Source of the DNA: Candidatus Iainarchaeum sp.
Lineage (GTDB): Archaea; Iainarchaeota; Iainarchaeia; Iainarchaeales; CSSED10-239
Direction of reading: 5' to 3'
DNA: 7,472 bases
Assembly: GCA_937968065.1 (NCBI GenBank)
Contig: CALBUD010000065.1
Span: forward strand, 1 to 7,472
Under the pieces are notes generated by a model that did no database searches, was not told the DNA's origin, and was given only the letters and a program-made list of their open reading frames with translations. Positions within the stretch are counted from its first letter, which is position 1, and every line of letters begins with the position of its first letter. Both the position numbers and the translations under genes were made by a program. Positions 3 through 7,472 of the stretch are shown piece by piece.

Positions 3-251
3 TTTTGGTTTATATCACATCCATTATTAATGCCATACTTATATGGTTTTATAATTCACGATTACGAATATAGTAATAAATGTGAATATAAGATAACAAG
101 ACTACAAGCTGATGAATTCTTCTTATATAATAATATACATAAATATAAAGGTAGTAAGTTAGTTTCTTTAGTTATGTATTTATGAGTGAGAATTGCAGGG
201 TATAATCATTTCAAAGCTGATTTGCCATTTGATAAGAAAACAATAAAATAA
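3..251 (+). CDS. Hypothetical protein: either the 3' end of a gene truncated by the window edge, or a complete 73-aa ORF from ATG 30
   Basis: Frame 3 has no TAA/TAG from the first base to TAA 249-251. That is 83 codons with one in-frame TGA at 183-185, which is unlikely by chance in DNA this AT-rich. I recognise no motif. Frame 2 is also open over 2..73 with a hydrophobic tail (VLVYITSIINAILIWFYNSRLRI), so the real end of the upstream gene is ambiguous. Confidence 0.4.
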
Positions 252-297: not shown

Positions 298-825
298 ATG
301 GTTGCAGAAAGTAAAATAGTGTGGACTACATTTGTAATAGCTTGATTAACAATACCTATCTATTGAATAGAAGTGTTAATATTGGCATTATTCCTATATC
401 TAATAGTTCAGCTGATAGACATAATATCTTGATATATAGCTGCTAGAAAAAGACAAGCTATTGCAAGTGGTATAATTAGAGAATGACTTGTAAGTAAATT
501 TACACTTCTAGTATGAATAATGTTAGCAATATCTATAACAATATTCTTAACAACAGCTTTACAAGGACTTAATTTAACAATCTTTTGATTTCCTATTTGT
601 TACATAATAGCTATATTCCCTTTAGCTACAACTACACTTTTTATATATATGGAAATTCTATCTATATTAGAAAATTTAAGTTACATACTAAAAGGAACTA
701 GACAATGAAAATTGTTTTGAGTTATTAGCTTCTTATGAAACAAACTATTTAATGTATCAATAGATAAGTTAAGTGAAACAGCTGAAAAGAAAATAGATGC
801 TAAGTTTAAAAATAATTTTAAATAA
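298..825 (+). CDS. Phage holin, phage_holin_4 (toxin secretion/phage lysis holin)-like, 175 aa
   Basis: ATG 298 is the first start after an in-frame TAA at 289-291, and the stop is TAA 823-825. There are nine in-frame TGA codons (343, 364, 430, 484, 514, 586, 706, 718, 736). The table-25 translation has several hydrophobic helices. It also has LIDIISGYIAA, ASGIIREGLVSKFTLLV and FIYMEILSILENLSYILKG. These resemble the family-4 holin consensus as I recall it: D-Y-I-T-G, S-S-K-x-G-x-K-G-x-x-K-K and E-x-x-S-I-L-E-N. A charged C-terminal tail follows, and a peptidase gene starts directly after it. Confidence 0.8.
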
Positions 826-826
826 T

Positions 827-1585
827 ATGAAAATATATATAAAGAAAATAATTGAAGCTCTCTATTGATTATATAAGTTTTATATAACTAATGATGAGGC
901 TTTTGATGAAATAGTGAAAGACCCTAGGGATTATGAAAGTTTAGCTTGATGAGAAACAAAAGGTCTTCCGCAAAGGTTTGAATATAAACCTTATCTAGTG
1001 ACAGACCAAAGAAAGGATTGATATAGAATGAGTTGTACATCTCAGTGAACAGCAGGGGCTATTAACACTTCAACTAAATATAAAAAAGGGAAAACTTTCT
1101 ATTTACCAGAACCTTTATGGGATGATATGGTGGACAATAAAGTGGGGGACAGAAAGAGAGGTGCCTATTTAAAAGATGCTGTAGGAACAGCTTATAAGAA
1201 AGGTTGGTTTAAAGCCTATTATAGAGCCACAAGCAATGATGCTAAGAAAGAGGCTTTATATAGAGGTGATTTGATAGTTACAGGGTCAACAAAGATTGAT
1301 TGGAAAGAACTTATTAAAACAGACAATATAGTTAGAGCAGCCTGACAAGGCTATTGACACGCCTTCTATATAGTGGGGTGGAATGAGATTTGATGGATAT
1401 GTCAAAACTCTTATTGACCTGATTTTGTATTGAACCAATTTGTAATACCATATTCTCTTGCTGACGAAGTGTTATTCAATTCAACATATGCTTTAACAGT
1501 TAATGACCCAGATTGGACTAAAATAAGCAAAGGGGAATTGTTTGAAAAATATAAATTAACTAGAATGAAAAATGCCAACAAATAA
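827..1585 (+). CDS. Papain-like (peptidase C1 family) cysteine peptidase, candidate endolysin, 252 aa
   Basis: ATG 827 lies 1 nt after the holin stop. An alternative ATG at 797 would overlap the holin. The stop is TAA 1583-1585 and there are nine in-frame TGA codons. Track ORF 1127..1345 is an internal fragment of this frame. The motifs are VTDQ(x7)SC with Cys at 1034-1036, GYGHAFYIVGW with His at 1358-1360, and WICQNSYG with Asn at 1406-1408. The His-to-Asn spacing is 16 residues, as in papain H159-N175. The block resembles cathepsin-type GGHAxxxxGWG...W..x.NSWG. The endolysin role is inferred from position only. Confidence 0.72.
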
Positions 1586-1871
1586 AAAATGATATTGGTC
1601 TAAAAATTGATGAGCCAATTATAAAAAATACCAATGAACAGATAAGGCTAAAAAAGATAGAGCTGCTAGAAATAAAGCTAGAAGAGAGGCTGAAAGAAAA
1701 GGTAAAGTGAGGAAATGAGATTGAAAGCATATAGACCATATTAAACCATTAAGCAAAGGTGGCTCTAGGTCTACAAAAAATACAAGAGTTGTTAGTGCTA
1801 AAGCTAACCAAAGAGCCTGAGCTAAAATAGCTAATAAAAGAAAAGGCTCTTGATACAAATTAAAAAAATAA
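1572..1871 (+). CDS. Small, very basic HNH-like (beta-beta-alpha-metal finger) nuclease-family protein, 99 aa
   Basis: ATG 1572 is the first start after TAA 1557-1559 and overlaps the peptidase 3' end by 14 nt. The stop is TAA 1869-1871 and there are eight in-frame TGA codons. The translation includes VRKGDGKHIDHIKPLSKGGSRSTKNTRVVSAKANQRAGAK. This matches the HNH core pattern D-H-I-x-P-L-S-K-G-G-(x4-5)-N-(x8-9)-N, but it lacks the usual Cys pairs. The N-terminus is Lys/Arg-rich. It occupies the same DNA as the antisense track ORF 1619..1858. Confidence 0.55.
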
Positions 1872-1883
1872 TCTTAATTAAAA

Positions 1884-4241
1884 ATGAGATGAGAACAAAC
1901 AACTAGAATTGAAGACTTAACAGGTTGAATAAATGTTAGAGACTATCCATCTGAGATAGAGAATAAACAATTTCAAGACCTAGTTAATTTCAATTTTGAA
2001 TGAAATAAATTAGTTAGCAGTAAGGGAAAAGAAGTTAAACAAGTAACTTCTTCCCCTTTGCAGGCTATTAAAATAGATAGTAATGATTTATGGTATATAG
2101 AAGACTCAAAACTTTACAAAAGTTGAACAGAAGTTCCAGAGCTTCAATGAAGCACTATAACATTTTCTACATTATCAACTTATTGGCAACAATATGAACC
2201 TAATCTATACACTTATATAGTAATAGATTGAGTTGAATATGAAGTTAATTGAGCCACACCAGAAGAAAGGAAAAACTCTTTAGTTAATCAGCTTGATACA
2301 AATGTGTATGATGTAAGAGAAAAAAGTGTACAGGAAATATTTATAGGTAGATTTGATTTTATTGCTCCTGTAATATCTCTACCTTCTTATAGCTCATATA
2401 TATTATGAGTTGATGCTCCGTGAGCAACCTGATTAGACCGTACTTGGACTGAAATATTTTCAGACAATAAACTTAATTGAACTTGTATAGTTATTAATTG
2501 AACTCCTGTTGCTTGATTAATACAGCCTAATACAAGCTGAACATTAAGAAGTAATGCTAATACATTATTTTCTACTATGTCTTTCCCTTCAGAAAATAAC
2601 GCTGTGCAATATTATTTTGATAATGATGTTGATTTAAATATATGAGACTCTAGCACATCTCAATCAATAGGTTGGCTTTTAAATAAGGTGGATACATTAA
2701 ATTATATATCAAATTATTCAGAGGAATATAGAGGTATATATTGCTTAAATACAACAACTTCATTTTCTGTTACATTTGATTGATATACAATAAGCTGAAC
2801 AATACCTGCCTGAAATATAGCTTCAATAAGAACTCAAATTGATACTCAACTTCCTTCTTGATACTATACAGAATACACTGCGGTTAGTAGCTGATTTTTA
2901 TATCCAGACTCAGCTCCTTGAGCATTCTTTATTTATTCATCTAATTGAGTTGCAACAATTTCTTCTTTTCAATTAAATTGACTTAATAGTGCTTCTTATA
3001 TTGTATATAATAAATGATATATCACAACACCAAAAACTTTAACACAAGGAGAGCAAATAGTTATATCTTGACAAGCAACTTGAATAAGTTTTGATTGAAT
3101 AGTTGATGTTACAATAGGTAATCAAATGCAACTTTTAGTTAGTAGAGATGATTGAGGTGCGGCTGTCTTTGTAGACAATATATACAATCCAATATGAGAA
3201 GAGGCTGTATGACTTCCAACTGTATGAACTATATATAACTGAAAGATTGTTTTATGAGGATACCCTGATAATGATAATATAGTATTTTCTAAAACTTCAA
3301 CACCAGACAATCCTTTGCTTATCACTTCATTTGATTGATATGATGCTTGAGGACAATCTGTATCAGGTTGAGATAAAGGTAGGGTTGTAGGTATGACAAC
3401 TTCTGAGAATTGATTATATGTCTTTAAAGACAATTCAATATGGTACACAAATTCAGAAAAAGATAATCCTGACTCAAACTCTTTCAACTTTATATTTAGA
3501 AAGATAACTTCTAGTTGAGCTTATAGCCAATCTACTATTACAGATGTAGAACAAGATGTTTTCTATTTAGATTGGAATGAAAGAGCTGTAAGAAGACTTA
3601 GTTATGAACAAAATTTAACAACTTTAAGAGATACTGCAATATCAGATGAGATAAGAGGATTATTAGAAGACTTACCACAAGACCAAAGTTTAGCAACAGC
3701 AAACTACACTTATCCAAATTATCGCCTATATCTATCAGACCACACTTGACCAACTATAACATATCCAAATGGGAAAACATATAATACAAACAATGTATGT
3801 TTAACATATAATGTATATAATAAAAGTTGGACAAAAGAAACTCTTTGAAATGTTATTGTAGCAGACAAAGGATATATAGGAACTAACGATAATAATATAA
3901 GTGAATTAGAAAAAGGTAATATTAATCTAAATGGATTAGCTCTTACAAAAAGATATACAGAAGGTGATGATTTCATAAGAAAGAAATATAATAGAGTGAA
4001 GGTTTTAGGTAAACTAAAGCCAGAATATTGAGAAAGCCTTTCTTTCACAACTGAAATATTAAATAATAACTGAGAAGTGGTAAAGAGAGTAACACAAACT
4101 GCAACTACAGAGGAAAGAATAGATGAGAGAATACATACCTATTTCCTATCTGAAAGTGTAGAGTTTAGGTTTAGTTTTTCTGGTAAAGGTAGAGTGGAAA
4201 TATATGACCTATTCTATTCTTATAAAGCTACTAAAATATAG
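1884..4241 (+). CDS. Large phage virion-type protein of unknown function, possibly a tail, neck or receptor-binding component, 785 aa
   Basis: I checked frame 3 codon by codon from ATG 1884 to TAG 4239-4241. ATG 1884 is the first start after TAA 1875-1877. The frame has no TAA/TAG and 42 in-frame TGA codons. The protein is rich in Ser, Thr, Asn and Tyr and looks beta-rich. An (S/T)-F-D-G-(Y/I) motif occurs three times. Segments such as ENGLYVFKDNSIWYT and DVFYLDWNERAVRRLSY resemble repeated beta-blade motifs seen in phage structural proteins. The functional call is weak. Track ORFs 3122..3487 and 3719..4048 are antisense shadows of this gene. Confidence 0.75.
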
Positions 4242-4245
4242 GGAA

Positions 4246-4287
4246 AATAAGCCCTGAGAGAGCTTTTAAGTTCTTTTAGGACTTATT
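4246..4287 (+). terminator. Long imperfect stem-loop in the only sizeable intergenic gap: possible terminator, RNA processing site or regulatory hairpin
   Basis: AATAAGCC (4246-4253) pairs with GGaCTTATT (4279-4287), leaving one bulge. The inner stem TGAGAGAGC (4255-4263) pairs with GTTCTTTTA (4270-4278) using several G-U wobbles. The loop is TTTTAA (4264-4269). It begins 5 nt after the stop of the 785-aa gene. No U-run follows it, so it is not a canonical intrinsic terminator. Confidence 0.3.
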
Positions 4288-4321
4288 ATACCTGTACAAT
4301 ATAAATAATAATAAAAACAAT

Positions 4322-5335
4322 ATGAATTTTATATATAATGAAACTCTTACTTGAGTTGTTGATTGAATTAATAAAACATTTACAACACAATATGTAATAG
4401 AGAAAATTGAAGAGGTTTATGTTGGTTGAGCTCCATATAGAGGAATTACATATACAGGACAAACTGTTGTTCTTAATGATGCTCCTCCTGCCTGAAGCTG
4501 ACAACCTACTATAGATTATTTTGAGTCTACAACACCTCCTCCTGTAACAGAAAGTGATGTTAGTCTAGGGCTTATAATAAATGATGTATATGATAAACTT
4601 AGTCAAGATAGAGTGAGCGGAGGGATACCAAATGATGTTTATAAAGAAAGTCAAATTAAGTTGGCAATAACATCAGGTTGGAGAAGAATTGAAAATAGTA
4701 GAGCATTAAAAGATGTAATAAGTTCTTATAGTTTCAGAAAAGCTAAAGAATTCACATTAAAACAAAAAGACTCATCTTCTATTGATATAGGAGAACAAAG
4801 CTACATACCATCTACAGGGAAACTTTCCCTTGACAATTGAGCCATTTTTGATTATAATGGATATAGCTGATGAATAATTAGCTCTATATGAGTGATTGGT
4901 GATACAGGAGCCACATTAAGTTTTTGATATAAACTTCCTAGCTCAGTGTTAAAAGTTAGTGAAGTGAGAGTTGGTTGAACTCTTATTGAGCCTGATGATA
5001 TAAGAGAATGGACTAATAGAAAGAACACTTACTGTGTTGCTGATTGATATTTGTTTCTACCTATTACTAATAAAGAAGATGTAGTGGTAGTTAAATATGT
5101 AAAAACTCACAACATTATAGAAGAAGACACTGACTTGTTTCCTTTAGAATGGGACTACTTTGAAATGCTAAGTTATTATGCTTTATATAAAATATGTGCA
5201 TTAGTTGAAGATGATAGAACCTCTCTATTCTACCAAGAATATGAAACTATCAAAAAGCAATATAAGGCTTATAAAAGTAGACAAGTTGATTGAATTAAGA
5301 ACACATTAAAAAGTGGTGTGTTAAAACAATATTAA
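4322..5335 (+). CDS. Two-domain hypothetical phage protein, probably virion-associated, 337 aa
   Basis: ATG 4322 is the first start after TAG 4277-4279, and the stop is TAA 5333-5335. There are 13 in-frame TGA codons. The gene joins track ORFs 4613..4840 and 5051..5293, which share its frame. The N-terminus NETLTGVVDGINKTFTT fits an L-T-G-x-x-D-G-x-N-x-x-F motif that I recall from the N-termini of phage structural proteins. A Pro-rich linker follows (APPAGSGQPTIDYFESTTPPPV). The C-terminus looks helical (EWDYFEMLSYYALYKICALVEDD...). Confidence 0.72.
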
Positions 5336-5354
5336 TATATAAATGTAAAAGAAA

Positions 5355-7391
5355 ATGGCGAAAGACAATAAAGCCCTTTTAAAAGAAGCTATAGATAAGG
5401 TGGGGGCAGATAAGGTTGAGAGTGCTATTAAAGAAGCTTGACCAGAAGCAATAAGAGCAGCATCAAGAGCTATACTTAGAGATGATAATCAATGATGAAC
5501 AGCTAATAAAAATACACAAATTGAGAATGTAGCTAAATGATATTCTAGTGATAACATTTGAATACCTTGAGTTAATGTTAATGTGGAAGGTTGAACTTCA
5601 AAAGAAACTTTTGATAAAACAGAAACTATAGACCAAATTGAAACACCTGAACAAGCTCAAGACTTAGTAGTTGATACAACTAAAGAAGATATGAAAACAA
5701 CTACAGCACAAATTGAAGAAACAGAAAAAATAGCTACACAAAGAACAGAAGAAGACAAAGTTATTAAAGATGCTGAAAAGAAAGCTATTGAAGACCAAGC
5801 TACTAAAATGCAAGAGCTTAGAGATGCTTATTCAAAAGAACTTGAGGATAGTGAGGCTAGAACTAGAACACTTATAGAAGATAGACTTGAAAGAGATACA
5901 GAGCTTTTAGAAGAACAAAAACAAGCTGAGCTTAATAAACTTGAAGCTGAAAAAGAACTACAAGCAGCAAAAGATAAACAAGCTATATTAGATGCTGAAA
6001 AACAAATAGAGGTTAGTAGGCAACAATCAGCTTGGGCTTATCAAAAACTTTGATTAGGTTTTTCTTCTTGAATAATCAACACTTCTCAACAAATAGCTAC
6101 AGAAGGTGCTGAAACAATAGCTGCATTGAAAGTGCAGGCTAATTATAATCAAGCTGATATAGCTTATAAAGTGGCACAAGTGGAGTTTGAATATACAAAT
6201 TCAATTAATCAAATGATTGATAACTACACTAATCAACAAATTGAACTTGAAGAAAGTGTGAGAGATAGAATATATACAGAACAAGAAAATCAATTAAAAG
6301 ATGAAGCTGAAAAAGATAAGGCAATAAGAGAAATAGAAAAAGAATATTTAAAAACAACTAGAGCAAGAGAAGATGAAATGAGAAGAGAAACTGAAAGGTT
6401 GAGAGATAAGGCTATAACACAATCTAAACAACTTCAAACTGAGCTTAAACAAAAAGAAACTGAAAATAAAACAGCTCTTAATGAACAAATGTTAAGCTGA
6501 GAATATTTTGCACTTTCAGTTGAAGAACAAAACAACCTTATATTACAAAGTGGTATGACTAGAGAGGAAGTTGATAGAAGAATAGGTGGGTCTATATGAA
6601 ACTATGCAAATCAATTAGCACAGAATATTATGTGAAATGATTTCTTCCTTTCTGCTACAGAAGATAGTAAAATTAAAAATAGAACTAAAAGCCTAATGGA
6701 GTTTAGTTGATATACATTAGAAGAGGCAACTAGAATTGCATTAGATGAAACATTACAAAAGAATGATAAATATAAAGCTATGAAGGCTGCTGAGGCTGCT
6801 TCTGCAAGTGGTTCAGGATGAGGGTCAGTAGCATCATCTAATTTAGCTTCTAAAATATTTGCAGCAAGTGAACAGCTTGGGAGAAAAATTAGTTATTGAG
6901 ATGCTGAAAAAATTGCAAACGACCCAGAAGCTGCTGCACAAATACTAGGTCAATGAGCTTTTGAAACTTGAAGTGTAGTTAATGACCCAGACTTATGAAC
7001 TTATAGCTGAACTACCATTTTTGGGAATAAATATAAAGATGATATAACTCCTGATAATACATATTGAATATTAAAAGAGGTTGACACATTAGATATTGAA
7101 ACTTGAGCAAAAAATAAATATAAAAATTTTGCACTAGATAAAATGTTGCTAGAATATGAAAACACTAAATCAAGTGGGGTTATAGAAGGTATAATGAAAT
7201 GATATAGTGCAGTAGATAAAGACAATAAAACTCTTATAGAAGAAAAACTAAAAAGTGAATTAAAAACTAAAGATGAACTTACTGACGAAGATGAAGGTAG
7301 TGTTTATATAGATGGTAGAAAGATTAGGATTTATAATCCTTGACCTAAAACAAATACAGAAATAGGTGAATTTGATAAACAAAAAAAATAA
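5355..7391 (+). CDS. Coiled-coil-rich phage protein (candidates: scaffold, internal/ejection or tape-measure-like protein), 678 aa
   Basis: I checked frame 3 codon by codon from ATG 5355 to TAA 7389-7391. ATG 5355 is the first start after TAA 5346-5348. There are 23 in-frame TGA codons and no TAA/TAG. Track ORFs 5691..6053 and 6126..6500 are two Glu/Lys/Gln-rich, glycine-free helical segments of this one frame. The C-terminal third is mixed and includes an ASGSGGGSVASS linker. I recognise no catalytic motif. Confidence 0.75.
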
Positions 7392-7411: not shown

Positions 7412-7472
7412 ATGGCTTTAAAATGGATAGATGGTAAATGGGTTTGGGAGGAAGAAGAAGAAAACTATAAAA
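7412..7472 (+). CDS. 5' end of a further plus-strand gene, truncated by the window edge
   Basis: ATG 7412 lies 20 nt after the previous stop. The frame stays open to the window end and reads MALKWIDGKWVWEEEEENYK. It uses TGG three times and GGT once. Only 20 codons are visible. Confidence 0.4.
   Translation, partial: MALKWIDGKWVWEEEEENYK

Follow-up and report, generated by a model that had tools for sequence, protein, structure and literature searches.

How is the codon TGA read in a phage sequence whose genes are full of it? The stretch analyzed here (the window) spans one entire metagenomic contig of 7,472 bp, the only sequence that exists for this phage. When TGA is treated as a stop, the longest open reading frame on the + strand is 152 aa; when only TAA and TAG are stops, + strand frames of 177, 262, 103, 787, 351 and 680 codons cover about 94% of the window at 30% GC, and the read-through of TGA that this tiling entails far exceeds chance expectation. 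Seven genes are tiled on the + strand, encoding a lysis cassette, an HNH endonuclease, a tail nozzle, an adaptor and a coiled-coil protein, and the seven gene stops in the window are TAA in six cases and TAG in one. The features are as follows:

3..251, + strand: g0, 3' part of a DUF1353-like gene that is cut at its 5' end by the contig edge; 1 TGA; stop TAA
298..825, + strand: g1, holin (Phage_holin_4_1), 175 aa; 9 TGA, 1 TGG, 3 GGN
827..1585, + strand: g2, divergent papain-like cysteine peptidase, putative endolysin, 252 aa; 9 TGA, 6 TGG, 12 GGN
1572..1871, + strand: g3, small HNH endonuclease, 99 aa, overlapping g2 by 14 nt; 8 TGA
1884..4241, + strand: g4, tail nozzle protein, 785 aa; 42 TGA, 7 TGG, 23 GGN
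4253..4280, + strand: terminator-like hairpin in the g4-g5 spacer, from a consensus scan only; 12-pair stem, then a T-rich tail
4322..5335, + strand: g5, head-to-tail adaptor (SU10_adaptor-like), 337 aa; 13 TGA, 3 TGG, 14 GGN
5355..7391, + strand: g6, protein with two long helical stretches, 678 aa; 23 TGA, 1 TGG, 18 GGN
7412..7472, + strand: g7, first 20 codons, running off the contig; 3 TGG, 0 TGA

The window phage is a podovirus-like tailed phage. The AlphaFold model of g4 (pLDDT 77) matches the SU10 nozzle (7z4b, E 6e-19), T7 gp12 and P22 gp10, and in their database form the 63 homologues of g4 are all rich in Trp and poor in Gly. The g6 protein has no match in Pfam or PHROG; eight relatives have an orthologue of it downstream of their nozzle gene, and this position suggests a putative internal or ejection protein. 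At the contig ends, g0 shares 41% identity over 80 aa with the DUF1353 gene (PF07087) of the relative L002 (6315-6692), and the N-terminus of g7 does not recognizably resemble those of the 1500-aa gene that relatives have in this position.

A preliminary description of this DNA had proposed that TGA encodes glycine (table 25) and not tryptophan (table 4), and each test that separates the two residues favored glycine. The nine TGA positions on which it drew (430, 484, 1355, 1415, 1716, 1722, 4352, 4364 and 6819) are all TGA and in frame, and its hand count for the 785-codon gene (42 TGA, 7 TGG and 23 GGN) is exact. The whole window contains 105 in-frame TGA (4.31%), 23 TGG (0.94%) and 78 GGN (3.20%) codons. 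With TGA as Trp, the encoded proteins would be 5.25% Trp and 3.2% Gly; with TGA as Gly, they are 7.5% Gly and 0.94% Trp, and TGA makes up about 57% of the Gly codons (105/183). Composition is ordinary only in the latter case, and so supports the glycine reading. Across the loci of the clade the percentages of TGA and GGN trade off with a slope of -1.00 (r=-0.98), their sum staying at 8.05±0.24% and TGG at 0.80±0.07%. The relative L002 has 7.34% TGA and 0.80% GGN, so that TGA is about 92% of its Gly codons; its nozzle gene has 76 TGA, 10 TGG and 2 GGN, and the 835-aa product would be 10.3% Trp and 0.2% Gly if TGA were Trp. In relatives, TGA is almost or entirely missing from the major capsid genes, so its use is uneven between genes. 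The suggestion that TGA and GGN cluster together holds for g6 (permutation p=0.0005), whose helical stretches 5595..6050 and 6108..6497 contain neither codon; it is borderline for g5 (p=0.075) and fails for g4 (p=0.93) and g2 (p=0.32).

Do family profiles prefer glycine at the TGA positions? When all 20 residues were tried at TGA against Phage_holin_4_1, Gly scored best (36.5 bits), with Pro next (31.8), Cys at 29.6 and Trp second lowest (24.6). Against PF05105 the g1 protein reaches 38.7 bits if TGA is Gly and 25.9 if it is Trp; against the PHROG 199 holin the scores are 30.7 and 19.9. The gain comes from two columns that had been singled out as conserved glycines and are so: nt 430-432 (aa 45; G +4.9 bits, W -2.1) and nt 484-486 (aa 63; G +3.9, W -1.2). 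Matches of g3, which has orthologues in six related loci, to Pfam HNH, HNH_5 and HNH_4 are weak and below cutoff (HNH_5, 20.5 with Gly vs 16.6 with Trp; HNH, 20.0 vs 17.9), and g5, with orthologues in nine loci, reaches 27.5 bits against PF24175 (SU10_adaptor; cutoff 27) with Gly vs 21.0 with Trp. Every family match (Pfam holin, HNH_5, HNH and SU10_adaptor; PHROG holin) thus scores G above W, but the HNH and adaptor Pfam profiles cannot tell Gly apart from other polar residues.

The g2 protein has no direct Pfam match; an exhaustive profile search found 123 homologues, several of which match Peptidase_C1 above cutoff. Its catalytic residues, Cys70, His178 and Asn194, are conserved in 20/20, 23/23 and 21/23 low-Trp homologues, and the sequence is that of a putative papain-like endolysin. 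In 22 homologues of ordinary composition, the TGA directly before the catalytic His (nt 1355-1357, site 177, predicted to restore G-H-A) is opposite G in 18, W in 2 and Y in 2, and that of N-S-Y-[TGA] (nt 1415-1417, site 197) is opposite G in 16 and W in 3, much as the control GGN sites 112, 153 and 184 have G in 17-20. TGA sites 189 and 173 have Gly in 10/22 and 9/22. The search used a Trp-coded profile and was therefore biased against this outcome. Nor is the outcome an artefact of selecting homologues, since those rich in Trp mix W and G at unambiguous GGN columns just as they do at TGA columns. TGG does sit at Trp-like positions, as had been noted, and in these homologues its sites hold W or aromatic residues: the VGW column is Y 13 and W 6, and the GWICQNS column F 10, L 6 and W 4. 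In one g2 homologue, conserved Trp columns carry CGA, as has been reported for Absconditabacteria.

We also aligned the window genes codon by codon with their orthologues in nine related phage loci. Opposite window TGA there are 187 TGA, 82 GGN and no TGG codons in 598 comparisons; opposite window GGN, 140 TGA, 66 GGN and no TGG; and opposite window TGG, 4 TGA, 2 GGN, 36 TGG and 27 F/Y/H codons in 103 comparisons. By chi-square, what faces window TGA is indistinguishable from what faces window GGN (p=0.31) and wholly different from what faces window TGG (p=8e-61), with the proviso that the pairs are not phylogenetically independent. Among individual motifs, nt 4352 and 4364 in g5 face mostly TGA or GGN. 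In K-[TGA]-D-[TGA]-K, nt 1716 is opposite only TGA or GGA. Two of the cited sites count for little: nt 1722 in that motif, a variable column (TGA, GGT, GCT, CCT, CCA and AAA), and nt 6819 (G-S-G-[TGA]-G-S), which lies in an unalignable low-complexity stretch. A BLOSUM vote that leaves out orthologue TGA codons ranks S > N > G, with W last, for TGA; GGA and GGG, which are known to mean Gly, yield S > N > G as well, so the ranking is an artefact of that exclusion. In a relative's ribonucleotide reductase compared with PDB 7agj, Gly is opposite 16 of 26 aligned TGA and Trp opposite none, and Trp is opposite 6 of 8 TGG. Two relatives carry the DEDDh exonuclease motif as D-T-E-T-T-[TGA].

What could decode such a codon? 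The expected tRNA-Gly(UCA) is absent from the window, in which no tRNA genes were found in 7,472 bp, and most relatives' loci have no tRNA(UCA) within 20 kb. Identical tRNA(UCA) genes (Rfam tRNA, 54.6 bits) do occur in relative L002/L012 and in the independently assembled L011, with G1:C72, U2:A71, G3:C70, discriminator U73, encoded CCA, a 7-bp acceptor stem and a short variable loop of 4-5 nt. Glycine has been called from G1:C72, C2:G71, G3:C70 and U73, and tryptophan from G73 (Shulgina & Eddy, PMC8629427). Judged by its sequence, the relative's tRNA is Gly-like and not Trp-like, departing from the Gly identity pair in having U2:A71 in place of C2:G71. The sole match among GTDB genomes is a 3.1-kb contig that was binned with a MAG named 'Patescibacteria group bacterium'.

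These observations bear on three other readings. That TGA is Trp (table 4), as in Mycoplasma/Spiroplasma phages and TGA-recoded gut phages, is the way the public protein collection stores these genes and is the commoner TGA recoding among phages (Borges et al.), and 4 of 103 comparisons at window TGG show TGA in the orthologue. It is nevertheless very improbable and is contradicted by the profile, homologue, codon-alignment and composition evidence: the skewed Trp and Gly contents above would have to be real, Trp is the worst or nearly the worst residue in every Pfam test, GGN and never TGG replaces window TGA, Gly occupies TGA columns in standard-composition homologues and PDB structures, and the relative's tRNA has U73, not G73, and G1:C72, not N1:U72. 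Still less credible is that TGA is Cys, Ser or Sec, is decoded ambiguously, or still terminates genes in a degraded, non-functional element. The relative's tRNA is listed as 'SeC' by ARAGORN, and the BLOSUM vote puts S first; U73, C35 and A36 are identity features of Cys-tRNA too, so the tRNA is compatible with a Cys-derived one, which is excluded at the protein level only. Against these, the acceptor stem and variable loop are not of Sec architecture, Cys falls below Gly on the holin profile and would reach 4.7% of residues, neither Cys nor Ser predominates at TGA columns in the reductase or the peptidase (variable site 74 apart), the S-first ranking is shared by GGA and GGG, and frames of 785 and 678 codons without TAA or TAG at 30% GC, conserved across many contigs, rule out pseudogenes.

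The glycine reading could also arise in a standard-code host if a phage suppressor tRNA-Gly(UCA) imposed it, possibly timing late genes, analogous to code-4 and code-15 phages. In its favor, one close relative has a tRNA(UCA) gene of its own, and the major capsid genes of relatives have little or no TGA. We consider this very unlikely, since TGA is in all six complete window genes and g0, and in nearly all genes of relatives on both strands, including RNR and RNase_T, which are expected to be early; such an all-gene pattern is associated with phages adapted to code-25 hosts (Borges et al., 10.1101/2021.08.26.457843). The scarcity of tRNA(UCA) in most relatives' loci, the Patescibacteria MAG and the CGA at Trp columns of a g2 homologue also argue against it.

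Four independent tests, the holin profile, the g2 homologues, the codon alignment and composition, favor Gly and reject Trp. Taken as a whole, the locus is very probably part of a podovirus-like phage with its genes in code 25. TGA would then be a sense codon for Gly, with TGG alone specifying Trp and TAA and TAG terminating. Decoding would fall to a tRNA-Gly(UCA) in a cell without UGA-specific termination, probably from one of the Patescibacteria lineages that use code 25 (Absconditabacteria or Gracilibacteria); the host would supply that tRNA, as would the phage itself in at least one very AT-rich relative. In the public protein collection the window genes are stored exactly as translated with Trp, and their Gly versions are missing. 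This table 4 translation is an annotation artefact, and the practical point is that databases hold the whole clade mistranslated.

Code-25 phages of Absconditabacteria (SR1) and Gracilibacteria have already been published (Borges et al. 2021, bioRxiv 10.1101/2021.08.26.457843; Liu et al. 2023, mBio, PMC10746230). A megablast of the window against the INPHARED phage collection gave no match, but the window resembles the published phages in its dense in-frame TGA in essentially every gene, aligning with glycine, its low GC and its TAA/TAG stops. According to their authors those phages share the code of their CPR hosts. In-frame TGA, low GC and an occasional phage tRNA(UCA) are common also to code 4 phages, including those of Mycoplasma/Spiroplasma, the model by which gene callers translated this contig, but window TGA columns are glycine columns. 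The tail is of the SU10/T7 type, judged from the g4 model and the g5 SU10_adaptor match, although the solved SU10, T7 and P22 structures have only 8-10% sequence identity with g4, and the window order nozzle-adaptor is reversed (adaptor-nozzle) in its own relatives. Finally, cellular UGA=Gly systems (Rinke et al. 2013; Hanke et al. 2014) likewise use UGA as an extra Gly codon (the major one in the window) beside GGN with UGG as Trp, and share a tRNA(UCA) with U73 with a relative of the window. They differ in that the window is viral, in that the relative's tRNA has U2:A71 and not C2:G71, and in that TGA nearly replaces GGN in some relatives (76/78 in the L002 nozzle gene).

The window is an entire metagenomic contig (7,472 bp, 30% GC) in which the longest plus-strand open reading frame is 152 aa if TGA is a stop. 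When only TAA and TAG are taken as stops, plus-strand frames of 177-787 codons tile it nearly fully, and these long frames require that TGA be read through as an in-frame sense codon. Its genes, numbered from 5' to 3', are as follows:

Genes of the window
3-251, plus strand: g0, partial, DUF1353-like
298-825, plus strand: g1, holin
827-1585, plus strand: g2, putative papain-like peptidase
1572-1871, plus strand: g3, HNH endonuclease
1884-4241, plus strand: g4, tail nozzle
4322-5335, plus strand: g5, adaptor
5355-7391, plus strand: g6, coiled-coil protein
7412 onward, plus strand: g7, partial

Of the seven genes that end within the window, six stop at TAA and one at TAG, the stops of code 25 (TGA read as Gly), and all related loci checked likewise end their genes at TAA or TAG. 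In-frame codons include 105 TGA (4.31%), 23 TGG (0.94%) and 78 GGN, the standard Gly codons (3.20%). Every TGA coordinate in the preliminary description proved to be in frame, and its tally of 42 TGA, 7 TGG and 23 GGN in the 785-codon gene is exact on recount. Both helical stretches of g6 lack TGA and GGN, as it had claimed, but its proposal that TGA and GGN cluster together stands for g6 (p = 0.0005) and not for g4 (p = 0.93) or g2 (p = 0.32); co-clustering is therefore a property of a single gene, and we reject it as a general rule. The start of g3 lies, in a different frame, 14 nt ahead of the g2 TAA (overlap 1572-1585), and a terminator-like hairpin is present at 4253-4280 in the g4-g5 spacer. 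With nozzle and adaptor at 1884-5335 the gene order is HNH, nozzle, adaptor; in all nine relatives it is HNH, adaptor, nozzle.

TGA very probably encodes Gly in the window, as judged from sequence comparison, and the original choice of Gly over Trp is borne out by the holin profile, the g2 alignment columns, TGA/GGN interchange, the composition of the clade and ribonucleotide reductase. When the window genes were translated with TGA as Gly or as Trp and scored on curated profiles from standard-code organisms, the Gly translation was superior in all five families tabulated: Phage_holin_4_1 (38.7 vs 25.9), PHROG 199 holin (30.7 vs 19.9), SU10_adaptor (27.5 vs 21.0), HNH_5 (20.5 vs 16.6) and HNH (20.0 vs 17.9). 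Pfam and PHROGs gave nothing usable for g2, g4 and g6 with either translation. Substitution of each of the 20 residues at TGA placed Gly at the top of the holin profile (36.5), followed by Pro (31.8) and Cys (29.6), and so on down to Trp (24.6) and Ile (24.4), so the Pfam alignment that had been proposed as a check finds Gly the best of 20 residues in this protein. Relative to a baseline of 30.8 with X at these sites, Gly gains 4.9 and Trp loses 2.1 at holin aa 45 (nt 430), and Gly gains 3.9 and Trp loses 1.2 at aa 63 (nt 484); aa 73 and 97 are neutral. The two holin sites named in the preliminary description are thus conserved-Gly columns, and TGA falling on Gly columns of conserved families is the Codetta criterion for code 25. 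On the HNH and adaptor profiles, Gly is not distinguished from other polar residues (the SU10_adaptor substitution was run on a truncated form and does not discriminate), and Trp is the lowest of the 20 for the HNH families and lowest or second-lowest on holin, HNH and HNH_5.

The peptidase gene g2 itself has no Pfam match with either translation and no match in a PDB sequence search. Because a word-index search gave only one relative, an exhaustive profile search was needed, and it found 123 homologues; it was run on Trp-coded sequences and so is biased against Gly, and the Gly result is therefore conservative. Several of the distant homologues score above the PF00112 (Peptidase_C1) cutoff of 20.7 bits, at 30-51 bits, and the low-Trp homologues retain catalytic-type residues Cys70 (20 of 20), His178 (23 of 23) and Asn194 (21 of 23). 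For the 22 homologues whose composition is ordinary (no more than 3% Trp and no less than 5% Gly), the residues at selected columns were as follows:

Residues of 22 ordinary-composition homologues at g2 columns
Site 177 (nt 1355, before the catalytic His), TGA in the window: G 18, W 2, Y 2
Site 197 (nt 1415, N-S-Y-x), TGA: G 16, W 3
Site 189, TGA: G 10
Site 173, TGA: G 9
Sites 112, 153 and 184, GGN controls: G 17-20
Sites 98 and 159, TGG: W 12-14
Site 185, TGG: Y 13, W 6
Site 190, TGG: F 10, L 6, W 4

Thus, the TGA before the catalytic His and that in N-S-Y-x, both proposed earlier as Gly, face Gly in 18/22 and 16/22 homologues, respectively. The composition filter is not circular, because the Trp-rich homologues mix Trp and Gly alike at window-GGN columns (39W/19G and 31W/22G) and at TGA columns (38W/11G and 42W/14G).

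Nine related loci were fetched, and window genes g0 and g2-g6 were aligned to their orthologues with TGA masked as X. The codon pair counts below are phylogenetically non-independent.

Codons of orthologues opposite window codons
Window TGA: TGA 187, GGN 82, TGG 0, F/Y/H 37, other 292
Window GGN: TGA 140, GGN 66, TGG 0, F/Y/H 16, other 208
Window TGG: TGA 4, GGN 2, TGG 36, F/Y/H 27, other 34

By chi-square, TGA columns cannot be told apart from GGN columns (p = 0.31), and each kind differs from TGG columns (p = 8e-61 for TGA and 1.5e-51 for GGN); TGG does not appear opposite a window TGA in any of 598 comparisons. In many columns every sequence has either TGA or GGN, often TGA against GGT, which are two steps apart. 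TGG still behaves as Trp and is not synonymous with TGA, pairing 36 times with TGG and 27 times with F/Y/H. A BLOSUM62 vote from which orthologue TGA codons were excluded recovered 37 of 44 sense codons and ranked S above N above G for TGA. It failed for GGA and GGG as well, because the conserved glycines of the relatives are mostly TGA themselves, and we keep it only as a sign that TGA behaves like GGN, with Trp in last place.

In the nine sequences that are 7 kb or longer, namely eight related loci and the window, TGA rises from 4.0 to 7.3% of codons as GGN falls from 4.1 to 0.8%, with a slope of -1.00 (r = -0.98), and TGA+GGN (8.05 ± 0.24%) and TGG (0.80 ± 0.07%) vary little. For example, in L002, a related locus of 24.5% GC, TGA makes up 7.34% and GGN 0.80% of codons, so that GGN is nearly displaced; its nozzle gene has 76 TGA, 10 TGG and 2 GGN, and with TGA as Trp its product would contain 10.3% Trp and 0.2% Gly. 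The DEDDh exonucleases of two relatives contain D-T-E-T-T-[TGA] and H-[TGA]-A-x-x-D, which correspond to the family's DTETTG and HGA motifs.

The g4 protein matches the fold of solved nozzles (T7 gp12, SU10 nozzle and P22 gp10): Foldseek with a g4 model (pLDDT 77, built from Trp-coded sequences) found 7z4b (E 6e-19), 9k09, 6r21, 7boy and 8eap, each with a probability of 1.00, and a PDB sequence search with the g4 profile gave no match. At g4 aa 564, a conserved Trp column, the codon is TGG in the window and in four orthologues and TGA in three others; in these few sequences this could be a real W-to-G change or UGA/UGG ambiguity through U34 wobble.

What decodes TGA was sought among tRNA genes, of which the window has none. 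A tRNA(UCA) that adjoins tRNA-Gln(UUG) is identical in L002 (the same locus as L012) and in L011, an independent assembly from another sample (L011 3784-3858 and 4442-4515). In L002 it scores 54.6 bits on the Rfam tRNA model and has a 7-bp acceptor stem, a short variable loop and an encoded CCA. ARAGORN labels it selenocysteine, but the stem and loop rule this out, and it is therefore not tRNA-Sec. Glycine calls for G1:C72, C2:G71, G3:C70 and U73, and Trp for G73 with N1:U72 (Shulgina & Eddy, PMC8629427); the L002 molecule has G1:C72, U2:A71, G3:C70 and discriminator U73, that is, three of the four Gly features, with U2:A71 in place of C2:G71, and neither Trp feature. The U73 of this tRNA and the near-worst standing of Trp on the profiles argue against code 4 (TGA read as Trp), as does the ribonucleotide reductase of another relative (L001), a universally conserved enzyme, in which alignment with the solved structure 7agj places Gly opposite 16 of 26 TGA codons, Trp opposite none of the 26, and Trp opposite 6 of 8 TGG codons. 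Cysteine is ruled out at the protein level by the holin profile, ribonucleotide reductase and the g2 homologues.

No tRNA(UCA) was found in the roughly 20 kb read at each of the other relatives, and we therefore infer that UGA decoding normally relies on the host. The reverse arrangement, in which the clade supplies or tunes UGA decoding itself and uses the choice of Gly codon to control expression of particular genes, possibly in a host without code 25, would cite the replacement of about 92% of GGN by TGA, the phage's own putative tRNA-Gly(UCA) and the TGA-free major capsid gene of some members; we consider it very unlikely. The window has no capsid gene, and those of the relatives are as follows:

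Capsid-region genes of related loci
L005 2152-3213: major capsid (Phage_capsid_4), 0 TGA, 28 GGN
L009 419-820: gene upstream of the capsid, 0 TGA, 10 GGN
L009 839-1897: major capsid (Phage_capsid_4), 0 TGA, 30 GGN
L010 1597-2706: major capsid (Phage_capsid_4), 0 TGA, 31 GGN
L008 2473-3531: major capsid (Phage_capsid_4), 6 TGA, 20 GGN (in the rest of that genome TGA is ~90% of Gly)

From this avoidance, selection seems to disfavour TGA in the genes with the highest expression.

With TGA as Gly, the main value of the window is that it marks a phage clade translated wrongly throughout the databases, with TGA as Trp. The public protein collection stores exact Trp versions of the window genes and lacks the Gly versions; all 62 nozzle homologues besides the window's own entry are Trp translations (3-11% Trp, 0.2-6.7% Gly), as are most peptidase homologues. 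Over the homologues as a whole (P0006-P0191), the stored proteins show 5-10% 'Trp' and Gly down to 0.2%. Such mistranslation puts dozens of wrong residues into each protein, to the detriment of homology searches, family profiles and structure prediction across an entire phage clade of poorly known CPR bacteria. Similar cases can be flagged by a composition of about 8% TGA+GGN and about 0.8% TGG, or by alignments in which TGA and GGN replace each other within columns.

The INPHARED phage collection gave no megablast match to the window. In a search of GTDB genomes, one for each species, the sole match was a related contig of 3.1 kb that had been binned into a 'Patescibacteria group bacterium' MAG, an indirect hint at a possible Patescibacteria host. 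Many recoded g2-family homologues have 'R' in columns that are otherwise always Trp. In the one examined at the DNA level (P0144, L013 277-1047), CGA is the codon of both such 'R' residues, at window aa 98 and aa 159, and 17 other recoded homologues also have 'R' at column 159. None of the nine direct relatives has CGA or CGG at window TGG columns. L002 has 31 CGA codons vs 0-2 in the other relatives, and orthologues have varied residues at its CGA columns (K 12, A 10, N 8, R 5), with one column all F/Y. Reassignment of CGA/CGG to Trp has been reported for Absconditabacteria, and CGA at two conserved Trp columns of L013 fits it; the window contains neither CGA nor CGG.

The biology is not new: Absconditabacteria and Gracilibacteria are already known to read UGA as Gly, and there are earlier reports of code-25 phages. 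Borges et al. found that a subset of recoded phages, with Absconditabacteria as predicted hosts, uses code 25 and has in-frame TGA in ~90% of genes, and Liu et al. (2023, PMC10746230) described phages and prophages from Absconditabacteria and Gracilibacteria that clearly use code 25. In its dense in-frame TGA read as Gly, the window matches the code-25 phages of both studies.
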